DNA of 64,000 nucleotides from Rhynchopus sp. YZ270_cl-10. Its lineage: Eukaryota. The stretch spans positions 62,001-126,000 of the forward strand of contig OZ037848.1 of NCBI GenBank assembly GCA_964035575.1. The letters run 5' to 3'. Below are positions 26,207 to 52,591 of the stretch, piece after piece; the stretch's first letter is position 1, and the number at the start of each line of letters is the position of its first letter. A program made the position numbers and the translations under genes. The notes beneath the pieces are model-generated. The model had not been told where the DNA came from and did no database searches. It saw only the letters and a program-made list of their open reading frames with translations.

Positions 26207-26691
26207 GCTAGGTAGGTGGGTGGGAAGTGTATGTGGAAAAGCTGTGTTGGGAGGTTTTGTGGGATGATGAGAGGTTTTGGTGCAGAGTCGTTTTTAAAGT
26301 AAAAAATGTCAAACAAAACATGCAACAAAGATAACGATTTTTTTAAATCCAGTTTTATGTTTTTTCTCAAAAAATAAAGCTGGAAAAGAGCAACAAAGGA
26401 AGTCGGTAAGATGATTTGCCTCACTAATGCAAAGCAGCGGAAAAGAATAAAAAGGCTAGAGTTCCTTTAATCCACATCAACTGACTTAGCCTAAGTAGGG
26501 GGGTCTATTCCCAAAGGCTTTTCCCACTCAAACTGCTGTGGTGTACAGTTGCGCGTCAAAACCTTTGGCAAATTGGAACGTTCTTGACGTGCACGAACAG
26601 AACGTCTTTTTGTTTGTGAAAACTTTGTTGTATTAGTGCAGACACCCGAGGATGTGCTCTAATATATTTTTCCCCCTCCACTTATTGCTTT

Positions 26692-27990
26692 CTACTTCTT
26701 CTTCAACCCCATTACTTCCTCCGCTGTGACCGCACCCTCTGCACGCAGTATGCTTGCAAAGTGTGGGAACTGCTTTGCTCCATCCAGCACTGTTGCCCCA
26801 TCAACCACGCAGTTCACATCCGCACCCGCCTTGATGACGAGGTGTAGGACCTCTTGTAGGGTGCGGAGCCGTCTTTTCAGAGATGCCTTCCCCTGCATTG
26901 ATAGGGTGCGCATGCTGTACTCCTCGCTGGATGCATGCTCACGCTGCCAGAACGATGGTGAGAAGACAAGAGGCATATCAGCAGCAAGCTTCAACCCTGC
27001 CTGCAGCACAGCCTTCACTGCTTCGTATAAACGCTTCTTCAGTAATTCTTCCACCGCACCAGTCCCATCCAAACCAGCCTCAAAAAGCGCCGACCACATT
27101 GCCGGCGTGCGTTCCTGTAGCTGAGCTGCATACCAAACCCTACCCAACTCCTTTGCCAGGCTTGTCTTCACCTTGGCCCCTTTTGCTAATAGTGTTGGAA
27201 TCACCCCATTGGAGTAGATTATGTGTAAGCTCAAAAACCGATCGAGCCCATCCTGGGTGATGTGCTCACAAAGAAGCTTACAGACTTCCTCTGAAGCCGC
27301 CGATCTGAAGCAGTCGTCCTTGGGGATGACCCCTTTGTCAAGAATTTTTTTGCACGATTTTAGGTCGTACGCTCTGACAAAGGAGGCGAGGAGCGCTTCA
27401 GTTGGTTCTTCCGTTGAAGATGCGAAGATGAGGTCCATGCAGGCTGCGGCTTGGGAGTAGGGTAACACTGCAGTTTGCAGCACGGTGAAGAGACCGGTTT
27501 GGGGGACGGGGCCTGCTGCAAAGAGGAGTTTGGCGACGTCAAGCTTTGTCTTGCGAAGGCATTCATGAAACACATCCTCACCCGGCACCACCCCCACAGC
27601 AAGGATATGCCTGATTATCGCAGTTCTCTTCTCCAGCTGCCCCCCTCCAATCACCTCTGCCTTCAGCCTCCTCCCCAACCGTGCCACACCCCTCCCAGGC
27701 ACCCCAAGCTCACTCAGTGCCTGCAAGGCTTCGTATTTCTTCCCTGCACGCATCACCAGCTCACCCCCCATCTCTAGGTCAATCCCACTCAATGGTTCAT
27801 CCATGTCCTCCAGCGGGCTTCCATCTTCAAGGGTAAGTATGCCATGGAGCAGTGCGGTGCTGTCGTCAGAGGAATCCCCAGCAGATGTGGTCAAAGCAGC
27901 GAGCGCCTGGTAGAGGCTGCGCACGCAGGCGTCGGGGGAGACTTCGATGATGGTGCGTTCGCCAGAGAGCAGCGTGATGGAGATGTCCAT
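26692..27990 (-). CDS. Ubl + ankyrin-like protein, copy 3 (432 aa)
   Basis: Tandem paralogue lacking the terminal EAEVREEL/F. Confidence 0.75.
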   Translation of the reverse strand: MDISITLLSGERTIIEVSPDACVRSLYQALAALTTSAGDSSDDSTALLHGILTLEDGSPLEDMDEPLSGIDLEMGGELVMRAGKKYEALQALSELGVPGRGVARLGRRLKAEVIGGGQLEKRTAIIRHILAVGVVPGEDVFHECLRKTKLDVAKLLFAAGPVPQTGLFTVLQTAVLPYSQAAACMDLIFASSTEEPTEALLASFVRAYDLKSCKKILDKGVIPKDDCFRSAASEEVCKLLCEHITQDGLDRFLSLHIIYSNGVIPTLLAKGAKVKTSLAKELGRVWYAAQLQERTPAMWSALFEAGLDGTGAVEELLKKRLYEAVKAVLQAGLKLAADMPLVFSPSFWQREHASSEEYSMRTLSMQGKASLKRRLRTLQEVLHLVIKAGADVNCVVDGATVLDGAKQFPHFASILRAEGAVTAEEVMGLKKK

Positions 27991-29461
27991 GCTAGGTAGG
28001 TGGGTGGGAAGTGTATGTGTGTGTGTGAAATGATAACCCCCCCGCTTTGTATGTTCAAACCAGCCCGTCGGGGGCGTTGCTGCTCAATGCATTGAGGGAG
28101 AGAGAGAGGGTTGAGGAAGTGAGAGAGACGGGTGGGAGGAGAAGGAGGGGGCTTGTGAAGGCGGATGATGAAAACACACACAATAAAAGGGAAATTATTA
28201 TTTTTTTTTTTTTGCGATGTTTTTGCTTGTTTTGAAGTTGCGTTTTTGTACTACACAATATACTTTCTACCAATGTTATGCAAAATCCAATTCCGAAGAA
28301 TTCCGAATCCCCCCCCCCCCCATTCTTATCTCATTTGATAAATCGTTGGAGGTAGTGTAGTTTGCCTCGGGTTGTGTTGCCACAGTTTGTGCAATCTCCA
28401 CTGTCTTACATATTTCTTACACACATTCATTAACCTCCGCCCTGGAGACGCTCCCTCCACCCGACACCATTTGTTTGTGCCGACAATCAAATGTGACATC
28501 AAAAGGACCACGCCCTTAATGTCTCTACAAAAGGAAAGGCGTGTCGTGGCAAGCACACAATCGCCTTTGTTCAGGTAGCTGAGTAGCTACCTGAACAGTG
28601 AGTGCAAAAAAAAAATAACAAAAAGAAGAGAAATTTTTATAAGATGAATATAAGCCTCTCGTACTGAGCCAAAAAAAAAAAAAACAAAGGAAGGCTGTAA
28701 CGATATACACGTAGTCGGCTCGCAAATCTCCTCAAATCCAGGAAATGTAGTCCCTGAGGAAGGGACTCCCTCTTGAATAATTAGGCAAATACCCAATGAG
28801 GCCCGTTGTGGGGGGATAAACCTTGGGTGTTTACACAAAAGCCTTCTCTTTTTTGATAAAATCAAGTGTTGGTCACCTCAAGACTTAATGAAAGTATATG
28901 AGAAGGGAAAACCTTTGCAGACGAGGCATCGATAATAGCAGGGTGGGGTGAGGGGATGCTGAGACACAGAGACATAACGGCTGTCACAAAAAAAAAAAAT
29001 GAAAAAAGAGAGATATTTTTGTAAGCTGAACCTGCTTTAGTTACATGTACAAAGAGGGGCAAATGCGAAAAAAAAAAGACTTTTATAACGAAAGGGGTTT
29101 CTTACAAAAAAAAGAAAGCAATGCTCGAAGGCGAAGGATATTGTTGCAGAGCGGTACACATCTCTCAAATATTTTTACCTTTTTTTTGTATCTTATTTTT
29201 TTTGCTAAAAACTTGCTGTTCGTGTACACCCCGAGGATGTGGTCTGACTGTATGGAATCGAAGGATAGACAACGTGCATCCACCCCTTGTGTGATCACCA
29301 CGCTGTCTGGCTGGAAGGGTTGTTTTAGCAATCCACGAAAATGTCTAGCATTTTTGCGAAAACCAAAACTGAGGGGATAAAAAAACGAAGACTCGAGGGA
29401 GATGTAGTTTTACCACTAAAAAAAAACACAATGTTTCGCTTAGGAACTACCCACATTTTCT

Positions 29462-29911: not shown

Positions 29912-30572
29912 TGTCTCCGTGAGAGCCTGTGAGACGCTGCTGAGAGCTGAAAAAAAAATCTCCCCATTCACGTATCACCCTAATCTTGTGGGCTTTTCTG
30001 AGGAAAGCTCTACAATATATTTTTGATAAAATTGTTGGAATAGTTAGGCTGATTGACGTCGGGCTGGTTTGCCCATTTTGTCACTTTTAACCACCGATTT
30101 AAACGGTTCACCACCGATCGTGGTCGATCACCACCGACCACCACCGCTCACCCACCGATTGCACCGACCACGTCGATTTACGCACCGATCAGCACCGATC
30201 AGCACCGATCAGCACCGATCAGCACCGCTCACACACCAATCACCACCGATCACCACCGATCACCACCGATCACCGTCGATCACCACCGATCACCACCGAT
30301 CACCACCGATCACCATCGATCACCACCGATCACCACCGATCACCACCGATCACCACCGATCACCACCGATCACCACCGATCACCATCGATCACCGTCGAT
30401 CACCACCGATCACCACCGCTCACGCACCGATCACCACCGACCAAAGCCGATGAACACATCAAATTGTGCCGCTCTTCAGGTATGTTTTTGTGCACCCTCC
30501 CCACCTCGCAGAGAGAATCCGCAGACTACTAGTTTGTTTTTTTTTGATTTGACAGACAGGTTAAGCTAGTCA

Positions 30573-31697
30573 TCAATCACCAATGACTAGCTTAGCCCTC
30601 TTCGTTGTCTCCCCAACCGGGTCTGCGGGGGCTTCCCTCTTTGTTCCTTTCTTTGAATCTTTGTTCGGGGAATCCTTCCTTATGGGTGGCGTAAAGCCAA
30701 AAAACGTGAGAGTTTGGCTTTGCTGCTGGTGCCTCAGGCGGTCTTCCTCCTCATCCCCTTTCTCCGCGTCATCCTTCTCTTTTGCCTTCCCTCTTTTTGA
30801 AGACGCCAAGGCCTTGTTGCGCGCAGTTTGGATGATCAAAAAGTCATCCGCCCCGACGGCGGCTTGTGCGGCCTTACAGTCACAAACGTGTCGGTAGAAG
30901 GGGTGTAGCCTGTGCCTATCAGGATCATCTGCGGTGAACACACACTGGAAGGTGCAATCCTTACCCTTGCACTTGACGGTCCCTGTCGGAGACATGGAAA
31001 AAGCGTTTCCCAGACTGTTTGTGGTGGCAATTTTTTCTTTTCTGCCACCATGAAGTCAGGCCAGTGTCCTAAACGACACTGCCACACCCTGAGGGGGAGG
31101 TGTGCTGTCTGTATACCCTGTCCCGACGGCGGCTTGCGCGGCCTTACAGTCACAAACGTGTCGGTAGAAGGGTTGCAGCCTGTGCCTATCAGGATCATCT
31201 GCGGTGAACACACACTGGAAGGTGCAATCCTTACCCTTGCACTTGACAGTCCCTGTCGGAGACATGGAAAAAGCATTTCCCAGACTGTTTGTGGTGGCAA
31301 TTTTTTCCCTCAAAAGTTCCCATGGTTTTTGCATTCTGGCGGCGGCTTTCTTTGGGCGTGGCTTCGTGGTTCCGATGACTGCTACGACCTGCTTAGCCCG
31401 TGAGCGGACGAGATTGCGCAGACACTGCTCTTCGTGGAGCGACCTCAGCCCCTTGTCCTCGTCGTCGTCCGCATCCCGCATCTCTGCCGGGACCCTGTAC
31501 GACAGGTCCACTTTCTTCATAGGCTTACAGCGTTGGTTGTTTGCCTTCCTGAGGATGTTTCCCAACTTAAACGCAGCGCGCGTGAGGGCATCCAAAACAA
31601 CTGGGATGTCATCCTCAAAGAAGGAGAAGATTTCGTGCTTGCAGCCAGGCACCCCTTCCTGGAACGACACCTTCAGTGTGACCGTATGTTCTGTCAT
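30573..31697 (-). pseudogene. Inverted copy of element ORF2 with a 270-bp internal duplication of the Zn-finger region (either disrupted or spliced)
   Basis: Near-identical to 40811-41665. The Zn-finger segment occurs twice with a stop at 31056 in the junction. The junction 31116-31042 is a possible 75-nt GT-AG intron. Confidence 0.65.
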
Positions 31698-32241
31698 TAT
31701 CTTATTTTCTGGTTAGGGAAGGGCAGGGTAGGGGAGGGGAGGGGAGGGGGGGTGTGGCGCGATGCATGCATAACAACACGAAACAAAGAAACAAGATTTT
31801 GTATTTTTTTTTTTTTAAAAGATGCCTGTGCTGGAGTGCAGAGTATTTTATAACTTTACTTTTTTTTCGACTACCTAAGATTCTTACCTAAAACAATTGA
31901 CTCAATATTATAATCCAAAATAATACTAATATGGGGTGATTTGAAGATTTTTTCCTAGGTTTCTATGTGGACTACCCCTTTGAAGGTTCTTTTCATCCTA
32001 AAGGGTTCAGGGAACGACGTCTATACCTTCCGTAGTACAAAGGCTTCGGCCAACATTGAGTACAGACCCGAATTCTCCCACCTGGTGGGATTACTCGGCG
32101 ATTGTCGACACAGCTACCAAATAAGTTGTCGAAGTTAAGCCTTAACTTCGATACGATGAGGGCCCTGCTCTTTTTTGATAAATTGACACATTGACAACGT
32201 GTGTCACCTCCACTGCTCTCAAGATCCTCCACGTAGGGGAG

Positions 32242-32788
32242 CAGGGATATTGCTAACTTTTGGGATTTTGGGATTTCGTGGGGCGATGGTCGAAAAAAGG
32301 GGGGGAGTGCTGACGCTAAGGCCGGCTGGCCGGATATAATTTTTTTTTTTTGACTTTTTTTCCCCCAGTCGAGCCCACCTGAGCTCAAGTTGGGGGAATG
32401 TAAGAATTCCGTGGTTGTCCAACTGCGGAGTTCGGCTTCACTGATATTTACACCAGGCAGACAGGGCACACGAATTATCAGTAACCTCAGTACATTAACA
32501 AAAGAAATGGTGATCATGGCACCCAAAGGTTCCTGGCGAAGCCACGGTACGCAACATTTCTAAAATTTGCGCTTAAAATTGCACATTTTTACTGCCAAAC
32601 TCTGTCATGGGAAGGGTGGGTCGCAAGCTTGCGCCGCAGGCGCACGGTACGCTACTTTTTGTCTTTCGCCATGCTGCATGCCATAGTGCCATATATAGTA
32701 CACTAGTTACCGTGGTGCGATGGTTCATGGAAAGGGGGGGGAACCCCAAATTCAGTGGGGCGATGGTCGATGGTTAGCAATATCCCTG
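32242..32788. mobile_element. Nested MITE with 16-bp TIR and 9-bp TSD
   Basis: TIR cagggatattgctaac / gttagcaatatccctg. gtaggggag at 32233-41 and 32789-97. Confidence 0.85.
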
Positions 32789-32808
32789 GTAGGGGAGGAT
32801 GTTTCCTA

Positions 32809-33037
32809 CACGACGGTGAAGTATAGTACATTACAAGTGAAGTTACATGTAACGTTACAAGTGAAAAACCGTTACAAGTGAGTTACAAGTGAGTTACAAG
32901 TGGGATACATGAATTACAGGCAAAATCAGGTTGTAACTGGTGGGTTACAAGTGAGTTACAAGTGAGTTACATGTAACAAAAGTTACATGTAACTCACTTG
33001 TAACTCCACTTGTAACACCCGTTACTTCACCGTCGTG
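32809..33037. mobile_element. Nested MITE with CAC termini and 11-bp internal repeats
   Basis: TIR cacgacggtgaagta / tacttcaccgtcgtg. TA on both flanks. (gttacaagtga)n inside in both orientations. Confidence 0.8.
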
Positions 33038-33099
33038 TACAGGGGGGAGGGGGGGGGGGGGGGGGGTGTTTTTTTTTTTTTTTTTTGGGGGGGGAGGCT

Positions 33100-33848
33100 C
33101 AGGGTTTTATCTTGAAAAAACATTTTAAAATTTTACCCGGTCTACCCGGTCTGGCAAAAAAGTGGTCAAAAATTTTTTTTTCGCCTCCGGCGAAAATGTC
33201 CCGGAAAACTGCTGCATTCACTCGCATATTGCATATCATATCACGTTCCCCACCTTTGCGGGTTTGCGGAATACGGGAAAAAATCACTTCAGGTCGGTAG
33301 CGTGCGGACGTTTCCTCGGATAGACATCTACAAAAAGAAACAGCAGTCATGGCAAAGGTTCCTGGCGAAGCCACGGTACGCAACATTTGTAAAAAATGTT
33401 GACATAAAATGGCACTGTCGTTGGTCATTATCGTCAGTTCCCGTAAATGTTAACATATTTTTCTAAATGAAAGTTTCTGGCGAAGCCACGGTACGCAACA
33501 TTTCAAAATAGTGCGCCTAAAAATTGCACATTTTACAGCCAAATTATGTCATGGGAAGGGTGGGTTGCAAGCTTGCGCCGCAGGCGCAGGGTACGCTACT
33601 TTTTTGCTTTCGCCATGCTGCATGCTTCCTTTTCCTTCGGCGGTTGACCAATTGAGTCGCGTTCTGGCTGTGACAGGGTCTCTTTGTTCATGAGGCCAGT
33701 TCTGGTCGCTCCCCAAGATTTATCACATTTTTTTTTGGCCTGACCGGGTGTATATATATATTTTTTTTTCCCCCCAGACCGGGTAAATATTTTTTTTTTT
33801 TATTTTGCCCGGTCTGGGACCACTAACATATAAGGAGATAAAACCCTG
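33100..33848. mobile_element. Nested MITE related to 32242-32788
   Basis: TIR cagggttttatct / agataaaaccctg. Imperfect 9-bp flanks ggggaggct / ggggagggg. Shares ~160 bp of internal sequence with 32242-32788. The empty site is visible in the other arm (~40170-40190). Confidence 0.75.
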
Positions 33849-34016
33849 GGGGAGGGGGGCACTTTGCACTGGGGGCAGGAAAAAGGAAAAACAATGCGAA
33901 CACGGGAAAACCCGAAAGACGCTGATGGTTGATGGAACTCGTGTGAGGAGAAGGTTACACGGAAAAATGGGTGGGGAAACATGTCTCAAATCAGTAATGT
34001 TTTGGAAAGAGAAATT

Positions 34017-36923
34017 TTACTGTGTGCGTGTTTTTTTTGTTGTAGGCTGCGACGGGGTCTCAGTCATGTCTTCCCCTGATCTCTTTCTTTGGCTTCTTGA
34101 AATGGTTTTCCTGCAGTAAAAGCACATCACCGCACCTTTTGTCTTTTCTGAAACTTGTCCAACGACGAGTTCAGTTTCCCTGTCGTTGATCAAATACCAC
34201 CTACCCCCCCTAAGATTGCAGGAGTAGTAGTGGCCTGATTGCTGAGAGCCGGTGTGCACAATCACCGACACAAGCTGGTATTCGGCTTCGACTTGGTTCC
34301 CGATACAGTGTTCGCTCAGATCCAAAGACAAATCCACGTCGACATCCGCAGTATTCTTTGTATGGGTGGTTCGCCCAGTGCGTGTGAATCGCTGGAAGTA
34401 AAGCGCGAGTATAGGAGGAGGAGTGAGGAGCTGTAAATGATGGGTGTGGACGTCGTCACGGACTTGAGGGTTGAATAAAGATCGCACGCTTTCAGCTACG
34501 CTTGAGAATAAGGGGAGGACAAGGTCAAAAGTGAAGGGGTTGTACTGCGGGGTTCCGCTGTTGTACTGTACCATTGACCCGGTGAAGAAGCCATGCATCT
34601 CCGACGAAAGCTCAGACATCAAACCCATCACGAATTCTTGGCAATCAGACTCCCGGAACATTAGTTCCTTGACGCTGTCCGTCTTCCGGAGGAGAGTCAA
34701 CATTGCAGACGGAGTCACACCGCCACTTCCCTTGCGTCGCGCTCCCTCCAACCTGGCAAACAGTGCCCTCAACTGCTTCTGCACAGGAGTCCCCCCCTCG
34801 TCGTTCTCTATGCCTTCTCTAAAGGAATCACATGAGAACAATGCCTGCATAATGGCATTGAAAAAGCAAGTGATACCCGCATTCACCAGACCAGGCTGAT
34901 GACACTCGACAGAAGAGTCGCCCTCATCACCCTCATCACCCTCATCACCCTCATCATCCTCATCTGTGTCATTGTCATCCTCTCCAGTCTCTTTGGTTTC
35001 GCCAGAAGCCTTGCGGCCGTCCTCCTGTATCCTTTGCAGGAGAACCGCCTTTGTCCCATCACTCCTCAAGCACCTCACCAAACACTGTTCACGGAGGGAT
35101 TTCAGGGAATCTTCGCTTGTGATTTCATCAATCCCTAGTTTGGTGATTTGTGATGCGAGTTCCTCCTTCCTCCGCTTTCTTTCCCCCCTGGATGCCTCTG
35201 CTTTCTCTGCTTTTTCTCCTCTCTTCAGTAGCTCTGCCTCAACTGCTTCTCTATTTTTAAAACTCCTGGCGGTGCTTGAGTCAAACTCTGCAGCTTTTAC
35301 TTTTGCGAAAGCACGCACCGCCTCCGTTTGCAGGGAGTCTCGAACGCTAAGCGAGTACGCACGGATGGCCCCTATTGCCCGGAGCATGTGGTCGGAGGTC
35401 CGCTTTGTTGAGTCTGCGATTACTTTTTTGTAAATCGCAATGGGGCGTTCCGTCGTCGCCGGATTCCCGCCGTACGGAGCAATCGAATCATGGCCCCCTG
35501 TGCGGAAATAACGGGACTCACGGTCCATGATGTTCAACAGGGAAGTTGAAATGACCCTGCAAAAACATTGCTCATGCTCCACCATGCCGTCCTGAGTCCA
35601 ATCAAACTCGGTGCGGGAAGGTCCACTGAACGCAGCAACTACCTTATGCAGCTCGTCCGCGTAGCCGTCCTGAGCATCTTCGCGACGAGGCTCCCATAGC
35701 TCTTCAACGGCATCAGTTTGTGTGTCTGTGCAATATTTTAATTTTGCACGCCTGGCGTCTCTTCACGTAGATGGCACCAATCCGAATAGGGATCTTTAAT
35801 CCGAAAGATCCTCCTTCACTTCTCGCTTCCAAGCATGTTCTTTGTCCATTCCTGCTGCTGCCGCTCCCACTACCCCCTTCCAAAATCTCTCCAAGGAGGT
35901 CCCCTCAGGAATCGACCACGTCAGCAGTGTCAGGGGATAGGTGAACACTTGAAAAACACGAGCATACACAGAAATGTGCGTCGCCGTTGCTGGTGCTTTC
36001 AGGTGCGTGTACATGGTGTGCCACCTGTTCGGGATCTTAGTGGCGGCTGAGGGGTCGTTGGAGTACAATACAGCGCTCCGCTCCGACAGGTAGGTTTGCA
36101 CCAGAGTGAAGAGGTTCGTGTCGCCTACGGTCTGCATGAGAGTCCATGCTCCTGCAGTGATGGAGGAAAACCTTCCTCCTGTTACAGGATAGAAGAAAAG
36201 TTTTCCTAACAGCACCTTCTTCTCTTTTTCCACCCAGACACGAAAGCCGTTGTGCGACACTGTGAACTCGTACATACGAGTGACAAACATAGCAATGTAT
36301 GTCAAGTCTTTCATAGCAGCCTTGTCCAGCAGATGCCCACGATGTACGGGTTCCATGACGTCACAGTTCACTACACCCGAAATAACAAGCTGGCGGGAGA
36401 ACGACTTCATTGCACGGTCATTGATGACGGATGAAAACTTGTGCGATATCGGTTCGGTCACGTTAAACCCTGAATCCGCGAGGAAGAGATGCAACAGTGC
36501 AAAATAGCGAAGTGAATCGTCAAGGTGATTCTGTACGGCAACATTTGTTTTTAGTTGCGTCACTGCCGTCAATAGCGGGTAATACTGTATGTCATGAGTG
36601 CCACATTCTCTTTTGACTTGCAGGAAAGTGAGGCCCATGACAAGAACACTGGTTAAACCGCAAGGCAATGGGCCACTATCGCCGCCCAGACATGCACTCT
36701 CCCCCACACGAAGCAACATCTCCATGTCCATGAGGACAAGGTGCTCGAGGATGCACATACGTACCCGATAATAGGTGATGCTGCTTGTATCCAAAGATAA
36801 ACCCGTAGAAGCTTCATGAATAGTTTCAAGCATGACGCGTAGATGATCAGCAATACGATGTAGGGGCGCACCATCACGAACACACTGCACGGTCAGCTTG
36901 TTGAGAGCAGTGCGAGAGATTCA
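34017..36923 (-). pseudogene. Frameshifted inverted copy of the transposase-SAP-USP gene; a 522-aa C-terminal ORF (34017-35585) remains open
   Basis: Nearly identical to 37092-40013. The start is mutated to GTG with a small deletion, a 1-nt deletion near 35805 gives a stop at 35796, and there is a 2-nt deletion near 35730. Confidence 0.85.
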
Positions 36924-37091
36924 CTTTTGTGTCCAAACATTTTTTTATGCGCGTTCCCTAAGAGGATGTGTGAATAAGGATAAAAAAAAAAGGGTAACTA
37001 TTTTTTGACTATCTTGCTTACCTTTTTTTTATCCTTATTCACACATCCTCTTAGGGAATTCACACATGTTTGGATCAACTGTTGCACAAAA

Positions 37092-40013
37092 ATGAATCTC
37101 TCTCGCGCTGCTCTCAACAAGCTGACCGTGCAGTGTGTTCGTGATGGTGTGCCCCTACATCGTATTGCTGATCATCTACGCGTCATGCTTGAAACTATTC
37201 ATGAAGCTTCTACGGGTTTATCTTTGGATACAAGCAGCATCACCTATTATCGGGTACGTATGTGCATCCTCGAGCACCTTGTCCTCATGGACATGGAGAT
37301 GTTGCTTCGTGTGGGGGAGAGTGCATGTCTGGGCGGCGATAGTGGCCCATTGCCTTGCGGTTTAACCAGTGTTCTTGTCATGGGCCTCACTTTCCTGCAA
37401 GTCAAAAGAGAATGTGGCACTCATGACATACAGTATTACCCGCTATTGACGGCAGTGACGCAACTAAAAACAAATGTTGCCGTACAGAATCACCTTGACG
37501 ATTCACTTCGCTATTTTGCACTGTTGCATCTCTTCCTCGCGGATTCAGGGTTTAACGTGACCGAACCGATATCGCACAAGTTTTCATCCGTCATCAATGA
37601 CCGTGCAATGAAGTCGTTCTCCCGCCAGCTTGTTATTTCGGGTGTAGTGAACTGTGACGTCATGGAACCCGTACATCGTGGGCATCTGCTGGACAAGGCT
37701 GCTATGAAAGACTTGACATACATTGCTATGTTTGTCACTCGTATGTACGAGTTCACAGTGTCGCACAACGGCTTTCGTGTCTGGGTGGAAAAAGAGAAGA
37801 AGGTGCTGTTAGGAAAACTTTTCTTCTATCCTGTAACAGGAGGAAGGTTTTCCTCCATCACTGCAGGAGCATGGACTCTCATGCAGACCGTAGGCGACAC
37901 GAACCTCTTCACTCTGGTGCAAACCTACCTGTCGGAGCGGAGCGCTGTATTGTACTCCAACGACCCCTCAGCCGCCACTAAGATCCCGAACAGGTGGCAC
38001 ACCATGTACACGCACCTGAAAGCACCAGCAACGGCGATGCACATTTCTGTGTATGCTCGTGTTTTTCAAGTGTTCACCTATCCCCTGACACTGCTGACGT
38101 GGTCGATTCCTGAGGGGACCTCCTTGGAGAGCTTTTGGAAGGGGGTAGTGGGAGCGGCAGCAGCAGGAATGGACAAACAACATGCTTGGAAGCAGGAAGT
38201 GGAGGAGGATCTTTTCGGATTAAAGATCCCTATTCGGATTGGTGCCATCTACGTGAAGAGACGCCAGGCGTGCAAAATTAAAATATTGCACACAGACACA
38301 CAAACTGATGCCGTTGAAGAGCTATGGGAGCCTCGTCGCGAAGATGCTCAGGACGGCTACGCGGACGAGCTGCATAAGGTAGTTGCTGCGTTCAGTGGAC
38401 CTTCCCGCACCGAGTTTGATTGGACTCAGGACGGCATGGTGGAGCATGAGCAATGTTTTTGCAGGGTCATTTCAACTTCCCTGTTGAACATCATGGACCG
38501 TGAGTCCCGTTATTTCCGCACAGGGGGCCATGATTCGATTGCTCCGTACGGCGGGAATCCGGCGACGACGGAACGCCCCATTGCGATTTACAAAAAAGTA
38601 ATCGCAGACTCAACAAAGCGGACCTCCGACCACATGCTCCGGGCAATAGGGGCCATCCGTGCGTACTCGCTTAGCGTTCGAGACTCCCTGCAAACGGAGG
38701 CGGTGCGTGCTTTCGCAAAAGTAAAAGCTGCAGAGTTTGACTCAAGCACCGCCAGGAGTTTTAAAAATGGAGAAGCAGTTGAGGCAGAGCTACTGAAGAG
38801 AGGAGAAAAAGCAGAAAAAGCAGAGGCATCCAGGGGGGAAAGAAAGCGGAGGAAGGAGGAACTCGCATCACAAATCACCAAACTAGGGGTTGATGAAATC
38901 ACAAGCGAAGATTCCCTGAAATCCCTCCGTGAACAGTGTTTGGTGAGGTGCTTGAGGAGTGATGGGACAAAGGCGGTTCTCCTGCAAAGGATACAGGAGG
39001 ACGGCCGCAAGGCTTCTGGCGAAACCAAAGAGACTGGAGAGGATGACAATGACACAGATGAGGATGATGAGGGTGATGAGGGTGATGAGGGTGATGAGGG
39101 TGATGAGGACGACTCTTCAGTCGAGTGTCATCAGCCTGGTCTGGTGAATGCGGGTATCACTTGCTTTTTCAATGCCATTATGCAGGCATTGTTCTCATGT
39201 GATTCCTTTAGAGAAGGCATAGAGAACGACGAGGGGGGGACTCCTGTGCAGAAGCAGTTGAGGGCACTGTTTGCCAGGTTGGAGGCAGCGCGACGCAAGG
39301 GAAGTGGCAGTGTGACTCCGTCTGCAATGTTGACTCTCCTCCGGAAGACGGACAGCGTCAAGGAACTAATGTTCCGGGAGTCTGATTGCCAAGAATTCGT
39401 GATGGGTTTGATGTCTGAGCTTTCGTCGGAGATGCATGGCTTCTTCACCGGGTCAATGGTACAGTACAACAGCGGAACCCCGCAGTACAACCCCTTCACT
39501 TTTGACCTTGTCCTCCCCTTATTCTCAAGCGTAGCTGAAAGCGTGCGATCTTTATTCAACCCTCAAGTCCGTGACGACGTCCACACCCATCATTTACAGC
39601 TCCTCACTCCTCCTCCTATACTCGCGCTTTACTTCCAGCGATTCACACGCACTGGGCGAACCACCCATACAAAGAATACTGCGGATGTCGACGTGGATTT
39701 GTCTTTGGATCTGAGCGAACACTGTATCGGGAACCAAGTCGAAGCCGAATACCAGCTTGTGTCGGTGATTGTGCACACCGGCTCTCAGCAATCAGGCCAC
39801 TACTACTCCTGCAATCTTAGGGGGGGTAGGTGGTATTTGATCAACGACAGGGAAACTGAACTCGTCGTTGGACAAGTTTCAGAAAAGACAAAAGGTGCGG
39901 TGATGTGCTTTTACTGCAGGAAAACCATTTCAAGAAGCCAAAGAAAGAGATCAGGGGAAGACATGACTGAGACCCCGTCGCAGCCTACAACAAAAAAAAC
40001 ACGCACACAGTAA
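37092..40013 (+). CDS. hAT-like DDE transposase fused to a SAP domain and a USP (peptidase C19) deubiquitinase (~973 aa)
   Basis: Transposase-like motifs CVRDGVPL, CLGGDSG (D, 37338), SVINDRA (D, 37599), VHRGHLL, GRFSS/NRWHTMY and ATTERPI (E, 38571). SAP: LKSLREQCLVRCLRSDGTKAVLLQRI. USP Cys box GLVNAGITCFFNAIMQAL, DCQEF, PPILALYFQRF, His box VIVHTGSQQSGHYYS..WYLIND. USP is near certain; the transposase call is by motif. Confidence 0.8.
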   Translation: MNLSRAALNKLTVQCVRDGVPLHRIADHLRVMLETIHEASTGLSLDTSSITYYRVRMCILEHLVLMDMEMLLRVGESACLGGDSGPLPCGLTSVLVMGLTFLQVKRECGTHDIQYYPLLTAVTQLKTNVAVQNHLDDSLRYFALLHLFLADSGFNVTEPISHKFSSVINDRAMKSFSRQLVISGVVNCDVMEPVHRGHLLDKAAMKDLTYIAMFVTRMYEFTVSHNGFRVWVEKEKKVLLGKLFFYPVTGGRFSSITAGAWTLMQTVGDTNLFTLVQTYLSERSAVLYSNDPSAATKIPNRWHTMYTHLKAPATAMHISVYARVFQVFTYPLTLLTWSIPEGTSLESFWKGVVGAAAAGMDKQHAWKQEVEEDLFGLKIPIRIGAIYVKRRQACKIKILHTDTQTDAVEELWEPRREDAQDGYADELHKVVAAFSGPSRTEFDWTQDGMVEHEQCFCRVISTSLLNIMDRESRYFRTGGHDSIAPYGGNPATTERPIAIYKKVIADSTKRTSDHMLRAIGAIRAYSLSVRDSLQTEAVRAFAKVKAAEFDSSTARSFKNGEAVEAELLKRGEKAEKAEASRGERKRRKEELASQITKLGVDEITSEDSLKSLREQCLVRCLRSDGTKAVLLQRIQEDGRKASGETKETGEDDNDTDEDDEGDEGDEGDEGDEDDSSVECHQPGLVNAGITCFFNAIMQALFSCDSFREGIENDEGGTPVQKQLRALFARLEAARRKGSGSVTPSAMLTLLRKTDSVKELMFRESDCQEFVMGLMSELSSEMHGFFTGSMVQYNSGTPQYNPFTFDLVLPLFSSVAESVRSLFNPQVRDDVHTHHLQLLTPPPILALYFQRFTRTGRTTHTKNTADVDVDLSLDLSEHCIGNQVEAEYQLVSVIVHTGSQQSGHYYSCNLRGGRWYLINDRETELVVGQVSEKTKGAVMCFYCRKTISRSQRKRSGEDMTETPSQPTTKKTRTQ

Positions 40014-40810
40014 AATTTCTCTTTCCAAAACATTACTGATTTGAGACATGTTTCCCCACCCATTTTTCCGTGTAACCTTCTCCTCACACGAGTTCCATCA
40101 ACCATCAGCGTCTTTCGGGTTTTCCCGTGTTCGCATTGTTTTTCCTTTTTCCTGCCCCCAGTGCAAAGTGCCCCCCCCCCCCCCCCAAAAAAAAATAAAA
40201 AATAAAGAATAAAATATAGTGGACCACACTCTAGGGTGGCTACACTAATACAACCAAGTTTTCAAAAAAAAAAAAAAAAAAAAAAGAAAGAAAGAAGAAA
40301 AAAGGATGACAGTGGGACAGTGGAGCTTGCACGCGTGGCAAGCAACTGCACTATTCCAACAATTTTTATAAAAAGAAAAAGCGAAGTCACCACACGTTGT
40401 CAATTTATCAAAAAAAGGGTGGGCGGGTGAAGGGAAAAATTGCGCAGCTGATGCTGCACGATAACGGTTGTGACAGGGTTCTGAGCACGTCGAGGCTCGG
40501 TGAATCTTCTAAAATTTTTGTTATGCAAATGGGGGTGATTTGGGGTCTTTTTTTTCAGGATCTTCAAATCACCCCATATTAGTATTATTTTGGATTATAA
40601 TATTGAGTCAATTGTTTTAGGTAAGAATCTTAGGTAGTCGAAAAAAAAGTAAAGTTATAAAATACTCTGCACTCCAGCACAGGCATCTTTTAAAAAAAAA
40701 AAAATACAAAATCTTGTTTCTTTGTTTCGTGTTGTTATGCATGCATCGCGCCACACCCCCCCTCCCCTCCCCTCCCCTACCCTGCCCTTCCCTAACCAGA
40801 AAATAAGATA

Positions 40811-41665
40811 ATGACAGAACATACGGTCACACTGAAGGTGTCGTTCCAGGAAGGGGTGCCTGGCTGCAAGCACGAAATCTTCTCCTTCTTTGAGGATGAC
40901 ATCCCAGTTGTTTTGGATGCCCTCACGCGCGCTGCGTTTAAGTTGGGAAACATCCTCAGGAAGGCAAACAACCAACGCTGTAAGCCTATGAAGAAAGTGG
41001 ACCTGTCGTACAGGGTCCCGGCAGAGATGCGGGATGCGGACGACGACGAGGACAAGGGGCTGAGGTCGCTCCACGAAGAGCAGTGTCTGCGCAATCTCGT
41101 CCGCTCACGGGCTAAGCAGGTCGTAGCAGTCATCGGAACCACGAAGCCACGCCCAAAGAAAGCCGCCGCCAGAATGCAAAAACCATGGGAACTTTTGAGG
41201 GACAAACTTGCCACCACAAACAGTCTGGGAAACGCTTTTTCCATGTCTCCGACAGGGACCGTCAAGTGCAAGGGTAAGGATTGCACCTTCCAGTGTGTGT
41301 TCACCGCAGATGATCCTGATAGGCACAGGCTACACCCCTTCTACCGACACGTTTGTGACTGTAAGGCCGCACAAGCCGCCGTCGGGGCGGATGACTTTTT
41401 GATCATCCAAACTGCGCGCAACAAGGCCTTGGCGTCTTCAAAAAGAGGGAAGGTAAAAGAGAAGGATGACGCGGAGAAAGGGGATGAGGAGGAAGACCGC
41501 CTGAGGCACCAGCAGCAAAGCCAAACTCTCACGTTTTTTGGCTTTACGCCACCCATAAGGAAGGATTCCCCGAACAAAGATTCAAAGAAAGGAACAAAGA
41601 GGGAAGCCCCCGCAGACCCGGTTGGGGAGACAACGAAGAGGGCTAAGCTAGTCATTGGTGATTGA
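40811..41665 (+). CDS. Element ORF2, 284 aa: putative C2HC/BED-like zinc finger, possible PB1-like N-terminus, basic C-terminal NLS
   Basis: VKCKGKDC...FYRHVCDC, acidic YRVPAEMRDADDDED, QSQTLTFFGF (PIP-like, non-canonical), KKGTKR...KRAK. Present in both palindrome arms. Confidence 0.65.
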   Translation: MTEHTVTLKVSFQEGVPGCKHEIFSFFEDDIPVVLDALTRAAFKLGNILRKANNQRCKPMKKVDLSYRVPAEMRDADDDEDKGLRSLHEEQCLRNLVRSRAKQVVAVIGTTKPRPKKAAARMQKPWELLRDKLATTNSLGNAFSMSPTGTVKCKGKDCTFQCVFTADDPDRHRLHPFYRHVCDCKAAQAAVGADDFLIIQTARNKALASSKRGKVKEKDDAEKGDEEEDRLRHQQQSQTLTFFGFTPPIRKDSPNKDSKKGTKREAPADPVGETTKRAKLVIGD

Positions 41666-44600
41666 TGACTAGCTTAACCTGCCGGGAATGGGAGGCTCCG
41701 TTTAGGAAAATCGGGTGGAAAAAGAATCAAATTTAGGGAATTTTGGAAAAAATTTTCACAAAATATGACCCATACTCCTACCAAGGGGCGTTTTCAGTCT
41801 AAAAACCCAAATTCAGATGAAATTGTGATGTTTGTGACTTCAGTCTGGCAGGGTCGGTCAGACTACCATGTATGGAGGGGGTAAACTGAGAGGATCAAGA
41901 ATAAAGAGAGGGGGTCATTTGCAGTTACGAATTGTCGCTTGTTCCTATCCTATTCCTTCACACTTCCACTACCCCAACAGGTTCACAGAAGTAAAATGAT
42001 ATAAAACCGCTCACCAACCTGTCGAGCGATGGTTGCTCTGGACGTGACATGCACGTTAAAGTCGATTCCCACGATGCATCGAAGTGTATGTCAAATGCCC
42101 CACCATTATTATCTTGACTGAACGTACAACCCTTTACAACCCGTTGTGTCCCACGAAGATGACACAACCCCCTTGTCTATTTGTTAGTTGCACACTCAAC
42201 CCATCTTTCAGATTCGACAAGCCGGAAACATGAATGCTGCTTCTCGTGGCTTGGTGTTGCAATAGAAGTAACCATACACTCTGGAGACGTCAAGTTGGTG
42301 CACCGCAGCTCAAGCACCAGCAACTGTACAATAAATCACCCATTTCTAGCGATCAGCACCGATTACCACCGATGACCACCGATCACGCACCGATCAGCAC
42401 CGATCAGCACCGATCAGCACCGCTCACACACCAATCACCACCAATCACCACCGATCACCACCGATCACCACCGATCACCACCGATCACGCACCGATCAGC
42501 ACCGATCACCATCGATCACCATCGATCACCACCGATCACCACCGAACACCACCGATCACCACCGACCACGCACCGATCACCATCGATCACCACCGATCAC
42601 CACCGATCACCACCGATCACCATCGATCACCATCGATCACCACCGATCACCACCGGCCAAGGCCGGCGTCAATCAGCCTAATAGTGCATCGTTCGTTGTG
42701 CCACGTTCTCGCAAAAAAAAAAGAAGAAAAAAACTCCCCCTTTTTTGTCCATCACTACACACCAACCGGGTAAAGATCTGTACTCAATTTCAGCCGAAGC
42801 CTATGTACTGCAAAAGGTACAGGACGCAGGTCATCAACCCTTAAGAGCAACTTTTGTTTTTTTCTTGGAATGGAACCAGGATGATATAAAAAATAAACGG
42901 GTCAAAACTCATCATCTTCACCGCATTCGTTAAAAACACGGTCTTCGTTGCACCGTTACGTTGTTGTAATTTTGACATACGTGAGAAAAATGGAGGGTTT
43001 CCGCCCCAGGCAGTGTGTGAGGATGATTTAATATATGGTTACGTGGTTGTACTCCTCACTCCCCCCGTTTGTAAGGAGGGCGAGTGGAGACTTGATATCG
43101 ACTAGGGGGAAACCGGGTGGGAGTGGGTAGGGTGGGTGAAAATAACAATGGAAAAATATGCATGTGCAAAAGAGCCAAACAAAATAAAAAAAACAAACAG
43201 GAGAACATTCGGTAAGATGATAGCAAAGTGCTTTTGTCACCATTTTATTGAGAAAAACCATAATAGACAACACTAACGAGATTTGTACGTTTCAGTACGG
43301 ACAAAAAATAGCAAATAACTCTCGGTCACATTTACAACTTAAAAAATGAAACTTGGGTGAGCAGGAGAAAAAGAGGAGCAAGCGTTCCCTTTTTTTTGAG
43401 CGAAGGGAGTACAAAAATACAAAAAATATAAACGAGTTGGTGTATTGAAACTCCTCCGATAGTCACTGACCGCTCTGTGAAAAAAAAGCACAAAAAAGAA
43501 AAAAGAAAAAAGAAAAAGAAAGAACCTGAAAGATGAACATGCCTCGTTCGGCACACCTAAAGTGAAAAATAAAAAGAGTGAAAAAAAAAACTTGTTTAGA
43601 TGAATAAAGCCTTACATGAGCTTCGATCTCTCAAGTTTTATTTTTGTTCAAATGAGACAATAAAGAGAATCTACAGTTGAAGGGTTTGAAATTTTTAAGA
43701 GTTCCTACGGGAGAGAATAAAAAGAAAAGACTGTACTGTAAGATGATACCAATTAAGCCCTATGTTTGCTTACTAGTAACTCACCTTACAGAAAGAAAGG
43801 AGAAAACTAGGAGTGAAATCTTTACCCACACTTCAAGGAATTAAAAAAAAACCTACCCATGCATGCCAACGTACAATGCCAGCCATCCGGATGAAAGCAG
43901 AATGCTTTCGGAGGGTTTTTATGCAGGTCCACCCTACCCTGCAAAAAAGCTTGATTTAAAAACACCGCCATTTTCATTCAAAATAATTGGGGGGAAAAAT
44001 AGAGCTTTTTTTTTCATAGTACATTGACATGTAGGCCCCCCCCACCCACCCCCCTCCCGTTTTCTCCCTGCCGATGAATGATGATATGCTGTGATGACCT
44101 GTACCTATCCCCTAATAAAATAACACCTTTTTAATTCTACACCATTTTTTCTGATAGAAATCAGGGGTTTTGCACAAAAAGAGTACGTCCCTTTAACAAA
44201 AAAAAACAAAACAGAATACTCACAGAAGGATACTGTTTTATCAGAATTAACCCGAAATTCACGCACAATGTTATGGGCAATACACTACCGCGCAGGAATT
44301 ACCCAAAAACCGATTTCAAAACGCAATGCGTTAAAAGCACTCCCATTTCGTCTGTTTTGGAAATAAATGACATTGTGGATACTACCCATCATCCATTTTA
44401 CAACAAGAACAGCAAAAGGTGGCAAAAAAACAATAAAATAACAAAGTGACGAAGATGAACCTAAATCCTCCCCTGCTGGGTTAGTCACCTTTAAAGGAAT
44501 ATTGTTACGATGGTGCCTTCGGAAGTCGGTCAGCGACCTGTCAATATCGACCCCTCCCGAGCACCATGCGAGAAAAAAAAAAGTGCGCTTGTGGAAAAAG

Positions 44601-44756: not shown

Positions 44757-45391
44757 CAGGGTATTAGGGTGAAAATCCAAAATCCCGGAAAAAACTGGTT
44801 TTTCTGGTTTTCTCTCCTGGGCGGCAAAAACTAGTGTTTCTGGCGAAAACCTCCACCGTTGACGGACACAGTCACCCCTTTCGGGTTTTTCGGGGGTGGG
44901 GTCAGTGTCTTATCCAGGAATCCGATTTCAAAATATTTTTCGGCGCTGCTGACCCAGGGTAGACATTGGGAACATAGGGACTGCATTTTTTTGCGGAGCA
45001 AAAAAATAATATAAAATGGCGCCGCAGGCGAAAATTTTTTGAGGGTACGGTGTAAAAATCTAGCTTTTTACACCACAGAGCCACTCAAACGAACCCTTTT
45101 TTACGGAGCAAAAAATGAAAAATTGCGCCGCAGGCAAAAAATTATCAAGGAACAGCCATTTCCCAAAGGCACTCCCGTGGTTCAACCACGGTTCTACCAG
45201 GCGGGGAAAAAATGCGGGGAAAAAAATCGAGTCCGCCCTAATCTGGGGACGACATTTACAGAAAGGCCTGGTGAAAAGTGTCGGTTTTTTTTCCCCCTCC
45301 AGATTTCTCTGTTTTTTTTTTTTTTTTTGAAAACCAGTTTTTGGAAAAACTGGTTTTGAAAACCAGTTTTTTTAACCACCCTAATACCCTG
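44757..45391. mobile_element. hAT-type MITE, 635 bp
   Basis: 15-bp TIR cagggtattagggtg / caccctaataccctg. 8-bp TSD cgacaatc at 44749-56 and 45392-99. Confidence 0.92.
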
Positions 45392-47468: not shown

Positions 47469-50400
47469 TCACTGCAGGCCTTCATGCGGGTTGGGAGAAG
47501 ATGACTCGGCGGGGGATCTGATCATAGGCGTGTCGTCTGAGTAGTCAGAGCTGACATCAGAGTTCAGGCCGTCACGCGACGAGCACAGATCGTCGATGGT
47601 GGTGCGCTTGTCCCTGTGAAGTGGTGGTGTTATGAAATCAGTTTTTTGGTGTCGATAGTCGCCTGCTTCATGACATACCTGCTCGCCAGCCACGCGTTGC
47701 GCTCTCTGTCCTTAATCGCGTGCAGCACCGTGGCGTACATTGTGATGTACACGACGTTCGCGAGGACTGCTGCTACTGCGAGGAGGATGAGGCCTGTGCA
47801 CCAGATGCCTTCTGCTGAGAGCACCTGCGCCTCGTCGATCATGTCCCATGCCTTCACGTACTCCAGTATCGAGTCGACAGCGTCGTACTTGTTGCCGGAC
47901 ACGAAGATGATCAGTTTCTCGACGTCCATCGTCATCAGCACAATTGCAATGACCAGAACGTCCAGAGACGACCACGATGCCAGACACTCGCCGATGAAGA
48001 ACAGCTTCTTCTGTTGGGACAGGCGCAACGGAATGAGCCACATGCACAGCCACACCACAAAGCTGAGAAGTGGCACGATCACGCAGAACACCACAAGGCT
48101 GATAATCACGAGCTGTTGGGGAAAAAAATAAGTTGAAGAAAAAACAAGAGGTGGTGACTATTTAGTAGCCATACGTAGTTCAGGAACGTCTTCGTGCCTT
48201 CTTCGTCAGACTTGGCGAAGTCCTTGAGCATCGACAGCACAGAGAACTTACGCTCGCGGTTCTGTTGTTGGTGTGTTGTTGTGAGAGGGCTTTGGGAAGC
48301 TACACCCATCTAAAATCTACATATACAGAGAAACAAGCACATCGTGCAGATAATGTCAAATAAAAAACCGTATAAAAGACATACCACCCCTGGTGTGACA
48401 TCTGCAAGGAGGCCCAGCACTCCTGTGTCCTCTACACCCATGGAGTTGACGAGCACACCGACGATGTGGAGCGTCATGCATGCAAGCATTGAGAGGAACA
48501 CGAGACACCTGATGTACCATGCGAGTGGCGACGGGCGCGTTGTGTCTCCACTCTTGTGTGCGACGCAGCACCCAAGCCACTTCCTGCGGGAGTGCAAATG
48601 GGTGCTGAGCACCTCGCGTGTCGTGTCCTTCGCGCCTTCTGCAAACCACGTTGTCGTCGCCATCGACCGTGCGGACGACTGTGACCGCCAGCTTCCCCTG
48701 TACCCCTGAGTCAGCGCATCCCTCATCTCCTTCTTCACAGACGCGACCACGTTTCTGTTATGGAACAACACAATCTGTCCGATCAGCAGGTTCAACCCCT
48801 GCACCAACGCAAAGACGTAGTACCCATACCACCTCTCCACCTTGAGTCCTGTCATCAACACCTCATCCCCCCAACCAGGAAGGGTGCCGCTTGGACCGAC
48901 CAAGATGTTCCCATACGGCACAAGAAGCAGGTTGAGCAGTGTGTCGAGCAACGAAAACTTTGCCGCATAGTCGAGATACGCGAGCAGATGCGATCTGGTG
49001 CTGTGGGACAGCACTGTAGGTGGGACGAAGAAGAGCCAGAAGAGCGCAACTATCTTGATCCAGGCCCACGTAAACGAGAGAAACCCGATTCCAACAGAGA
49101 TGTCGGGAACGTGAGCGTTCCAACCGTCCTTAATAAGCTTCAGCGTTGTGTACTTATAGACCGGCATCTGCTTGGTCTGCCCTCCGATCACAAAGACGGC
49201 ATCGATGGTAATGTTCTCGTAATACAAATGCGACGACAGCATGAGCCCCATCAGGATAATAAGCATCACCGGAACACCGTAGCGCAGCTTTGCCGGCACC
49301 ACCGGATGGGCGAACACTGTCTCCCCCATACGCAGTGTATCCCAAACGCTCCCTGCGTCGTCAATCGAGCTCGTGTCGTCCTCAATGGAATCGGGGTCTT
49401 CCTCACCGTCCCTTTGGCACTCCGTCGTGACCTTGGCCTCAGGGTCACCATTCAAGGCTTGCCGCACCTTGTACACTGTGAACACCGGCATCATCACGCA
49501 TGCCAGCACGGCGGTAAGGATCATTGCTAATTGCACGTATTTTCCGGAGTCCATGATTGTCGTGTGGTCAGGCGCGATGGACGGCATTGGTGTGCCGCAT
49601 ACTGCTTCCTCCTGGAAGGTTCTGAGCTTCGAAGAGGCAAGTGCCCCAGAGAGCTTGTTGAATGTCATGTTGAAAAACCCGTTGATAGTGTTCGTCCAGG
49701 CAGGGCCGGATGTTTCCAGCTTTTTGGACCAATCGATGAGGGTCTGTCCAGTGCAGGAGATGCACTCGACCTCAAGGGTGAGGTCCTTGACAAGCATCTC
49801 GGAGAGATCAATCTTGAGGCCATCGTGGTCCATAGCAGAGTAGAGGCAGGACGCCTGGGTGGCCTGTTGCAGTTCGAGCTCGACAAACCTTTCGTCAACG
49901 ATTTTGAGGATCGCGTCAAGCGTGGCACCCCAATCCGCAATGTTGACGCTGATGCGCACATCGTTCTCAATGAGCGGTCCAAACTCCTCCCAACGGATGT
50001 AGATTCGTGCGGAAAGCCTGAGTGGGTCGTCCTGAGCATTTCCAAACGCATCCTGCGATGCCGCAAGACGCAGGAAATTGTTCAAATTGAACGGACCCGC
50101 CCCCGGGAGAAGAACCGACAGATTGCCAAACGAAGGCAACCCAGACACACTCACCTCCGACACGACCAGCTTCAGCATCCCCATGTACACATCTGCCGGG
50201 GTGCCCCCCTGGATGAACTTTCCAGAGACGTTCACTAGGGTGCCGAGGTTCAACGCTGTTCCATTCCAGTTGTCGCTTTGGCTTAGCGAAGCGGCGATGA
50301 AGTCGTTCACAGACATATCACTCTCGAAGTCGCCGAGCACAGTGTCGAAGAGAGTGTCCAGAATCTTGATGAGCACGGACTGCGACAGGTCCACGTCCCC

Positions 50401-52203: not shown

Positions 52204-52591
52204 AATAGCTTTCTTTTAATACCCCGTCCTCAAAAGGACAAAAGGGGCTTTGTTTTGTGTTGCTGTTGGTTTTTGTGTGGAAGGACGGAAGATGTGGAAA
52301 AAAAATGCTGTAATTTCTATAAAATGTGGGAGGACCTTCGAGACATTCTCCCAGGGGGGCTATTTTTTCCAGGAGAAAAGTGGCAAATAAACCCCTTTTC
52401 AAGTCGATAAGAGAAAGCATAAGAGCGGGGATGTACGAAAAAAAGTATAAAAAAAACACTTGAAAAAGGTAATGTAAAAGAAGAAGAAAAAGAGAAACGT
52501 TGGCAAGGTGAAGTGGGCCTTGCTACGTTCAGTCACTTTGCCAATCAAGAAGAAACGTGTAATTGACACTGTATAATGCATTTTGCTTAGT

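Follow-up and report, generated by a model that had tools for sequence, protein, structure and literature searches.

We focused on an open reading frame (ORF) of Rhynchopus sp. YZ270_cl-10, referred to here as ORF A (protein P0001), that joins a predicted hAT-like DDE transposase to a SAP-like motif and a ubiquitin-specific protease (USP) domain. The gene lies in a stretch of 64,000 nucleotides from assembly GCA_964035575.1 (contig OZ037848.1, positions 62,001 to 126,000 of the forward strand), which we call the window and to which all coordinates refer. Very probably, this transposase-USP fusion belongs to a mobile family. A fuller reading, in which the hAT-like transposase-SAP-USP gene sits in a transposon likely bounded by terminal inverted repeats (TIRs) and its USP likely protects the transposase complex from degradation by removing ubiquitin from it, seems to us evenly balanced between right and wrong.

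ORF A occupies 37092-40013 on the forward strand, exactly as a first-pass annotation of this DNA had it, and consists of a single uninterrupted frame of 973 codons without a stop. Its first 73 amino acids (37092-37310) are predicted to form three helices at the position that the dimerization domain would take in a hAT transposase. They are followed by a predicted RNase H core (amino acids 78 to 191, 37323-37664) with D83 (37338) and D170 (37599), by an H195-R-x-H198 motif at the position of the hAT CxxH motif (37674-37685), and by a mainly helical insertion domain (amino acids 200 to 488, 37689-38555) that contains R252-F253 (37845) and for which the model confidence is low over residues 330 to 453. 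E494 (38571-38573), the predicted third catalytic acid, lies 324 residues past D170. The coiled coil and the acidic (DEG)n linker of the first-pass annotation were both found, the former as a long, charged, coiled-coil-like helix (amino acids 536 to 597, 38697-38882) and the latter as a stretch with a 9-bp repeat (amino acids 642 to 678, 39015-39125). Between them lies the SAP-like motif (amino acids 606 to 641, 38907-39014), which is also present in relatives without a USP. The SAP assignment stands in part: the motif aligns with the SAP of the relative P0005, which passes Pfam at 26.3 bits, but ORF A itself reaches only 16.1 bits against the PF02037 cutoff of 23.9. The USP domain (family C19; amino acids 683 to 941, 39138-39914) contains C691 (39162), H903 (39798), and N918/D919 (39843). 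Between the catalytic His and Asn/Asp, the chain reads L-R-G-G (amino acids 909 to 912, 39816-39827), which is the C-terminal motif of ubiquitin; this is probably chance, and a cut there would inactivate the USP domain.

The earlier claim of an intact USP is borne out by the Pfam UCH profile, which matches amino acids 683 to 941 over positions 2 to 254 of 254 (E value of 3.6e-35; 122.2 bits against a cutoff of 23.9), and by a PDB sequence search in which N686/C691, H903, and N918/D919 line up with the USP46 and USP12 Cys and His boxes. The domain is distant from every solved USP. Its fingers appear shortened, with 60 residues between the USP46-aligned blocks versus 112 in USP46, and contain no Cys in amino acids 778 to 837 and hence no zinc cysteines. 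From the QQDAHEF box of USP46, the domain keeps Asp and Glu (D765 and E768), and the usual QQD reads ESD. USP fingers contact the distal ubiquitin, but those of CYLD are truncated and a fingerless USP is still active (bioRxiv 2023.08.01.551441), so that activity would be likely despite the short fingers; judging from its sequence, we consider the domain likely to act on ubiquitin. Cleavage of another modifier (SUMO or NEDD8) or self-processing is decidedly improbable, even though USPL1 has a USP fold and cleaves SUMO (bioRxiv 2023.08.01.551441), SUMO proteases are found in many transposons (PMC2836005), and the fingers of ORF A are atypical: the linker between SAP and USP is free of Gly-Gly, and D765 and E768 are kept.

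Copies of the gene are part of the evidence for its mobility. ORF A forms the right-hand arm of a 6.3-kb palindrome (33848-40182), the left arm of which (33848-36989, reverse strand) is a 99% identical, inverted, and broken transposase-USP copy that has lost its ATG and retained the catalytic motifs of the USP. The left arm differs from the right by 20 substitutions and six insertions or deletions, including three frameshifting deletions, and its changes comprise 11 nonsynonymous and 3 synonymous ones. The palindrome center (36954-37058), with perfect 36-bp arms around a 33-bp spacer, is bridged without differences by contigs in sequencing runs X1, X3, and X4. When the USP part was searched against proteins of 30 to 534 amino acids at an E value of 1e-15, one of 1,338 candidates matched. 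This protein, P0014, is 86% identical and spans half of the SAP, the linker, and the part of the USP that precedes a frameshift. Given that P0014 sits on a different contig, the fusion has been copied to another place at least once.

Four runs from two studies (four of six listed) contain 75 to 88% of the words of 37000-40200, although at least one of them may be source data; there was no RNA run among the matches listed for these words. All four DNA runs contain further copies of 36900-39040 at 90 to 97% identity, one of them with a 660-bp internal deletion. Contig depth of the arms relative to the center was ∼2x in X1 and X3 and ∼3x in X4, a measure of depth and not of copy number, and the contigs examined, which drop variants, did not show the alleles of the right arm itself around 38130-38215. 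The decayed copies, together with multicopy relatives, indicate a multicopy transposon rather than the single-copy host USP that the first-pass annotation had named as the alternative. It is barely credible that the assembly has produced a chimera or that this is a single-copy gene domesticated by the host: in the assembled sequence, the SAP-USP junction is in frame in both arms as well as in P0014 on the other contig, and decayed copies, TIRs, and a target site duplication (TSD) are all present.

An exhaustive phmmer search with amino acids 1 to 643 against 1.84 billion representatives yielded five matches at an E value of ≤0.001, namely, the second copy in the window itself plus four more (E values of 1e-34 to 1e-14). 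Three of these clusters comprise 14 hypothetical-protein accessions of Diplonema papillatum, and the fourth is one Logan protein (P0005); five consecutively numbered pairs of D. papillatum accessions look like the N- and C-terminal halves of one locus each. Judged by these relatives and the gene layout alone, the host would probably be a diplonemid or a close kin. Two word-indexed searches, one with 0 matches among 7,998 candidates and the other with only the window's own copy among 7,997, are uninformative on absence, and pattern scans of metagenome contigs with ORF A and P0005 confirmed 0 of 328 and 0 of 36, respectively, the alignment being too divergent for such scans. The D. papillatum proteins (e.g., KAJ9446146.1 and KAJ9441248.1/KAJ9441249.1) and P0005 belong to the same transposase family as ORF A at 25 to 31% identity and share its invariant motifs, its C-terminal SAP, and its lack of a BED finger; unlike ORF A, they are labeled hypothetical and, as gene models, end soon past the SAP and have no USP. 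All relatives with a complete C terminus (P0004, P0005, P0007, and P0008) stop after the SAP-like motif, and no UCH was found in the gene models of the six relatives scanned, although a downstream frame might encode one. This suggests that the USP is a lineage-specific gain, which may have been added behind the SAP solely in this lineage. Relatives that share the core and the SAP without having a USP offer a natural control. P0003 to P0013, from D. papillatum, are unannotated, multicopy, BED-less, SAP-bearing hAT-like transposases of at least two subfamilies; the D. papillatum genome paper lists TATE, MULE, and Helitron elements and mentions hAT 0 times in its main text (PMC10161547). A BED-less and unannotated hAT-like family, multicopy in D. 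papillatum, is thus brought to light.

The relatives without a USP are also what would be expected if the USP were a passenger, i.e., a piece of a host gene captured in frame and carried without benefit. The sole other USP-bearing copy found, P0014, is frameshifted ahead of the His box, and the left arm is decaying, with its 11 nonsynonymous versus 3 synonymous changes. We nevertheless regard a passenger as improbable, in that the domain, far as it is from solved USPs, has kept its frame open and its Cys, His, and Asn/Asp in place, the same 1,338 candidates (30 to 534 amino acids; E value of 1e-15) included no close host donor, the fusion predates a copy at 86% identity, and deubiquitinases (DUBs) have been taken up repeatedly by other transposon classes.

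Across the four lineages of the family (24 to 50% identity), 52 positions are invariant, including D83, D170, H195, R196, H198, R252, F253, N489, E494, and P496. Only 8 of the 59 acidic residues of amino acids 1 to 560 are invariant, with D83, D170, and E494 among them. Most motifs picked out by the first-pass annotation correspond to these positions: its LxxD is L80-G-G-D83, INDRA holds D170, HxxH in place of CxxH is H195/H198, and TER holds E494. The exception is the acid of its RDxxP motif, D17, which was rejected as catalytic since it is not conserved and the relatives have G or A there. Its RF/RW motif holds by half, as the R252/F253 pair is conserved but RW at 301-302 varies between relatives (RF, KW, QW); the latter was rejected as an equivalent of the RW in the transposase Hermes.

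AlphaFold2 was run on 10 aligned sequences (mean predicted local distance difference test [pLDDT] of 53; predicted template modeling score [pTM] of 0.41). The model shows the element order of RNase H, with strands at 78-83, 95-107, and 110-123, a helix at 128-151, a strand at 164-169, a helix, a strand at 186-191, a long helical insertion, and a helix at 490-506, and places D83 at the end of strand 1, D170 after strand 4, and E494 within the last helix. In Foldseek, ranks 1 to 11 are all Hermes chains (best E value of 9e-5, eight at ≤0.001), with TM-scores of just 0.21 to 0.29; the next protein listed has an E value of 0.018. In VIA-align against 48,161 chains, Hermes is again at the top (Z score of 10.7, root mean square deviation [rmsd] of 7.9, 317 aligned residues), ahead of RAG1 (second, Z score of 7.6), Transib (5.9), and the P element (5.3), and rows 1 to 22 are DDE recombinases or integrases throughout. 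The RNase H/DDE fold that the first-pass annotation expected of amino acids 1 to 530 is hence the one predicted here, with Hermes as its nearest neighbor in both structure searches. Mutator, P, and Transib/RAG were set aside as the nearest class because all rank below Hermes in VIA-align, although rank alone does not exclude them. Folding the full-length protein from its sequence alone gave a pLDDT of 37, and that model was left out of the structure searches.

Hermes (PDB 4D1Q and 8EDG; PMC10368747, PMC6027215) resembles ORF A not only as the top structural match with an RNase H core and a large helical insertion but also in its His motif, followed in the same order by an Arg-aromatic pair, and in the spacing of its catalytic acids: D170 and E494 are 324 residues apart, as are D248 and E572 of Hermes (PMC6027215), and D83-D170 spans 87 residues versus 68. 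ORF A differs in its ∼10% identity, in HxxH for CxxH and F for W319, in having a C-terminal coiled coil, SAP, and USP, in the 5-bp rather than 8-bp TSD of its unit, and in its lack of a BED finger. Canonical hAT transposases carry a BED zinc finger at their N terminus (PMC10368747), but no CCH[CH] pattern was found in the first 120 amino acids of ORF A and four relatives, and there is no in-frame space for such a finger upstream of ORF A. In all four lineages, the hAT CxxH motif is replaced by HRxH, retaining the His and not the Cys, and the R-W pair (R318/W319 in Hermes) by R252 and an F; the Trp is reported to be dispensable for hairpinning in Kat1 (PMC4763223). The TIR start, TAGGC, fits the hAT consensus (T/C)A(A/G)NG at positions 1 to 3 and fails at position 5, and a PDB sequence search with the family profile gave no transposase at an E value of ≤10. 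With HxxH, RF, a 5-bp TSD, and no BED finger, ORF A is not a canonical hAT. Within the Blackjack lineage, hAT5 likewise combines a hAT-type enzyme with a 5-bp TSD (PMC12730594), a likeness that on our side comes from one insertion for which a 3-bp reading fits too. Since ORF A has no match to a hAT Pfam family, it is probably a lineage separate from hAT5, with which it was compared by description only.

The first-pass annotation had also placed the gene inside TIRs with a TSD. This holds for a 12.6-kb unit (30045-42680), but there are no TIRs close to the gene itself. In our scan, this was the one nontrivial TIR and TSD pair to enclose ORF A, with 14 of 14 matching bases and a 5-bp duplication; such a pair occurred in 0 of 200 Markov shuffles of the flanks, and a 14/14 match alone occurred in 16 of 200. 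The left TIR (30045-30062, forward strand) starts with TAGGCTGATTGACG and is identical to the right TIR (42663-42680, reverse strand) at 14 of 14 and then 17 of 18 positions, and the motif occurs in the window only at these two ends. The TSD copies lie at 30040-30044 (ATAGT) and 42681-42685, and a 3-bp TAG reading with a TIR one base longer fits equally. Next to the TIRs are arrays of the 10-mer ACCACCGATC, of which the window holds 25 exact copies, 14 in the left array (30090-30457), 11 in the right array (42337-42659) in the same forward orientation, and none elsewhere. If the two flanks are joined, the sequence spanning their junction aligns with a look-alike at 40330-40375; this supports an insertion, although the look-alike is itself located inside the unit. 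The long inverted arms were rejected as TIRs, since they represent copies of the gene and what look like their TSDs are palindromic words.

On balance, we take the TIRs of the 12.6-kb unit to be the gene's own ends. A smaller though sizeable chance remains with the alternative that they belong to an unrelated small element, in which the transposase-USP gene and a second gene, ORF B (40811-41665, forward strand), piled in later, the former having lost its own ends. This would agree with three MITE-like (miniature inverted-repeat transposable element) insertions and nonhomologous spacers in the unit, with the target-site look-alike and a segment similar to the 3′ ends of host genes (40211-40274) inside it, and with the confinement of the 90% cluster of ORF B to this contig. 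It is countered by the lack of own TIRs near ORF A, where inner pairs around ORF A or ORF A plus ORF B reach at best 11/14 with a 3-bp TSD, and by the short, TAG-starting TIRs, which as in Hermes come with subterminal repeats and which, together with the 5-bp TSD, fit a hAT-like enzyme.

Keeping to the reading that the unit is the transposon of ORF A, we propose that D83, D170, and E494 form the active site and that H195/H198 and R252/F253 stand in for the CxxH and R318/W319 of Hermes, as predicted from the alignment and the model. The flanks would end in hairpins after excision, as in Kat1 and Hermes (PMC4763223), and insertion would yield 5-bp duplications. In place of a BED finger, which ORF A lacks, the SAP motif or, in trans, ORF B may recognize the subterminal 10-mer arrays. 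An inverted duplication would have produced the second copy, now decaying. The acidic linker could let the USP reach neighboring subunits, so that the tethered enzyme would deubiquitinate the transposase complex and prolong its life, much as proteasome protection has been proposed for the VTD domains of Helitrons, which are active DUBs (PMC9741609).

Several points weigh against this reading as a whole. None of the hAT Pfam families (Dimer_Tnp_hAT and kin) gave an hmmscan match at an E value of ≤10, Atlas feature matches to hAT families (0.82 to 0.84) are a lead only, and the model is modest in pLDDT and pTM, with E494 in a stretch below 50 and a high rmsd to Hermes. The ends of the unit are known from one insertion alone, and the two arms have nonhomologous spacers between ORF A and ORF B, so that the unit may be composite. 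Ubiquitin binding is not assured given the short fingers and ESD for QQD, and the USP may be dispensable, since the relatives seem to have multiplied without it.

The role that the first-pass annotation gave the DUB, protection of the transposase or editing of ubiquitin on histones or PCNA, is plausible. As for the substrate of the USP, we see an even chance that it is mainly the transposase complex. An unlikelier candidate is the set of host proteins at the cut site (ubiquitinated histones, PCNA, or break-signaling chains), on which a SAP-tethered USP would act to steer repair or open chromatin. Such targeting is suggested by the SAP directly preceding the USP. CYLD, moreover, prefers non-degradative chains. 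Shortened fingers like those of ORF A are also seen in CYLD (bioRxiv 2023.08.01.551441), and transposon Ulp1 and OTU domains have been suggested to act on DNA repair factors (PMC2836005). However, ORF A has no targeting module besides the SAP, which is found equally in relatives without a USP, and its best PDB matches, USP46 and USP12, are too weak for a substrate assignment.

The capture of DUBs by transposases, USPs included, is already established. The first-pass annotation was right in citing Ulp1 and OTU captures, with such domains known on Ginger1, Mutator, and Helitron proteins (PMC2836005), but it missed closer precedents. Trichomonas vaginalis XP_001314237.1, also from a protist, joins a DDE transposase to a C19 ubiquitin hydrolase; in contrast to ORF A, its transposase is of the transposase_11 type (pfam01609), in a source that concerns IS5-like elements (PMC2836005), and this different transposase family argues for an independent capture. 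HLE2 Helitrons hold UCH domains stably (PMC11417382), and the Helitron VTD is likewise a transposon-borne DUB, with its activity shown (PMC9741609), but Helitrons are rolling-circle RepHel elements and not DDE cut-and-paste ones, and those of HLE2 have most of their extra domains in separate ORFs (PMC11417382). Ginger1 and Mutator, like ORF A, carry a protease (OTU or Ulp1) C terminal on a DDE transposase (PMC2836005), although the transposase superfamilies and protease classes are others. In line with the first-pass annotation, which knew of none, no fusion of a hAT-like transposase with a USP was found in literature searches for transposase-USP or hAT-DUB links, which did not extend to Repbase and Dfam. 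What is new here is the hAT-like/USP pairing, the BED-less family, and a possible separate BED gene. Several unrelated transposon classes have acquired ubiquitin or SUMO proteases, for which roles are only proposed in the literature covered, and the intact frame and candidate ends of ORF A allow a direct test of whether ubiquitination restrains cut-and-paste elements.

The possible BED gene is ORF B, which encodes a 284-amino-acid orphan without a Pfam, Atlas, or PDB match or similarity to P0005. It contains a weak BED-like CCHC finger, assigned by motif only (amino acids 143 to 184, 41237-41362), in which C153-x4-C158 and R179-H180-x-C182 resemble C51/C54 and R70-H71-x-C73 of the Hermes BED. 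Among 34 long ORFs of the window, this pattern, written post hoc, is present in 2, both of them copies of ORF B; it also occurs in 6 of 20,000 shuffles, where significance is overstated since the pattern was defined after seeing the sequence. ORF B also features the motif Q-T-L-T-F-F and, at its C terminus, a basic tail, and it was duplicated along with the transposase gene; its inverted, broken copy (30557-31948, reverse strand) shows 1 substitution and a 270-bp internal tandem duplication. With ORF A lacking a BED finger, ORF B might be a separate DNA-binding partner that recognizes the subterminal arrays in trans, which we regard as a lead. Taken further, this would make a two-gene hAT-like branch whose catalytic subunit lost its BED and gained a SAP and a short-fingered USP, with ORF B supplying the array-reading BED. 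We consider this rather doubtful; if true, the transposase would carry its own ubiquitin eraser and borrow end recognition in trans. No such arrangement was described in the literature covered.

Within the unit, the two transposase gene copies diverge head to head from the 105-bp hairpin at the palindrome center (36954-37058), and the differences between the arms cluster beside it. Each arm of the center is a pyrimidine tract ending in AG, which may be trans-splice-acceptor-like, and transcription of both palindrome arms could yield fold-back RNA. The nested insertions are a MITE that ends in CAGGG and has a TSD of 8/9 bp (32242-32788), a MITE with a TA duplication (32809-33037), both secondary, and a MITE-like element with a 13-bp TIR starting from CAGGG and an imperfect TSD in a G tract, which adjoins the left arm (33100-33848). 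With a further element at 44757-45391, the window contains three MITEs with CAGGG termini, two of them with exact 8-bp TSDs, which point to a separate canonical hAT family in the genome.

Other elements of the window include two noncoding TIR elements (3878-5692 and 57398-58233) with unambiguous 5-bp TSDs, internal repeat arrays, and termini unlike those of the 12.6-kb unit. An intact Tc1/mariner-type element, assigned to this family by eye, lies at 12977-14384 with ∼30-bp TIRs and a 341-amino-acid ORF, and the exact protein is found on 32 contigs, suggesting very recent activity. On the reverse strand, 22765-28083 holds three tandem copies, 93% identical, of a gene for 460 amino acids, the 3′ flanks of which resemble 40211-40274 in the unit, and two related, unannotated ORFs of 1,260 to 1,300 amino acids (18873-22655 and 48310-52215) are membrane-protein-like and share 66% DNA identity over 750 bp.

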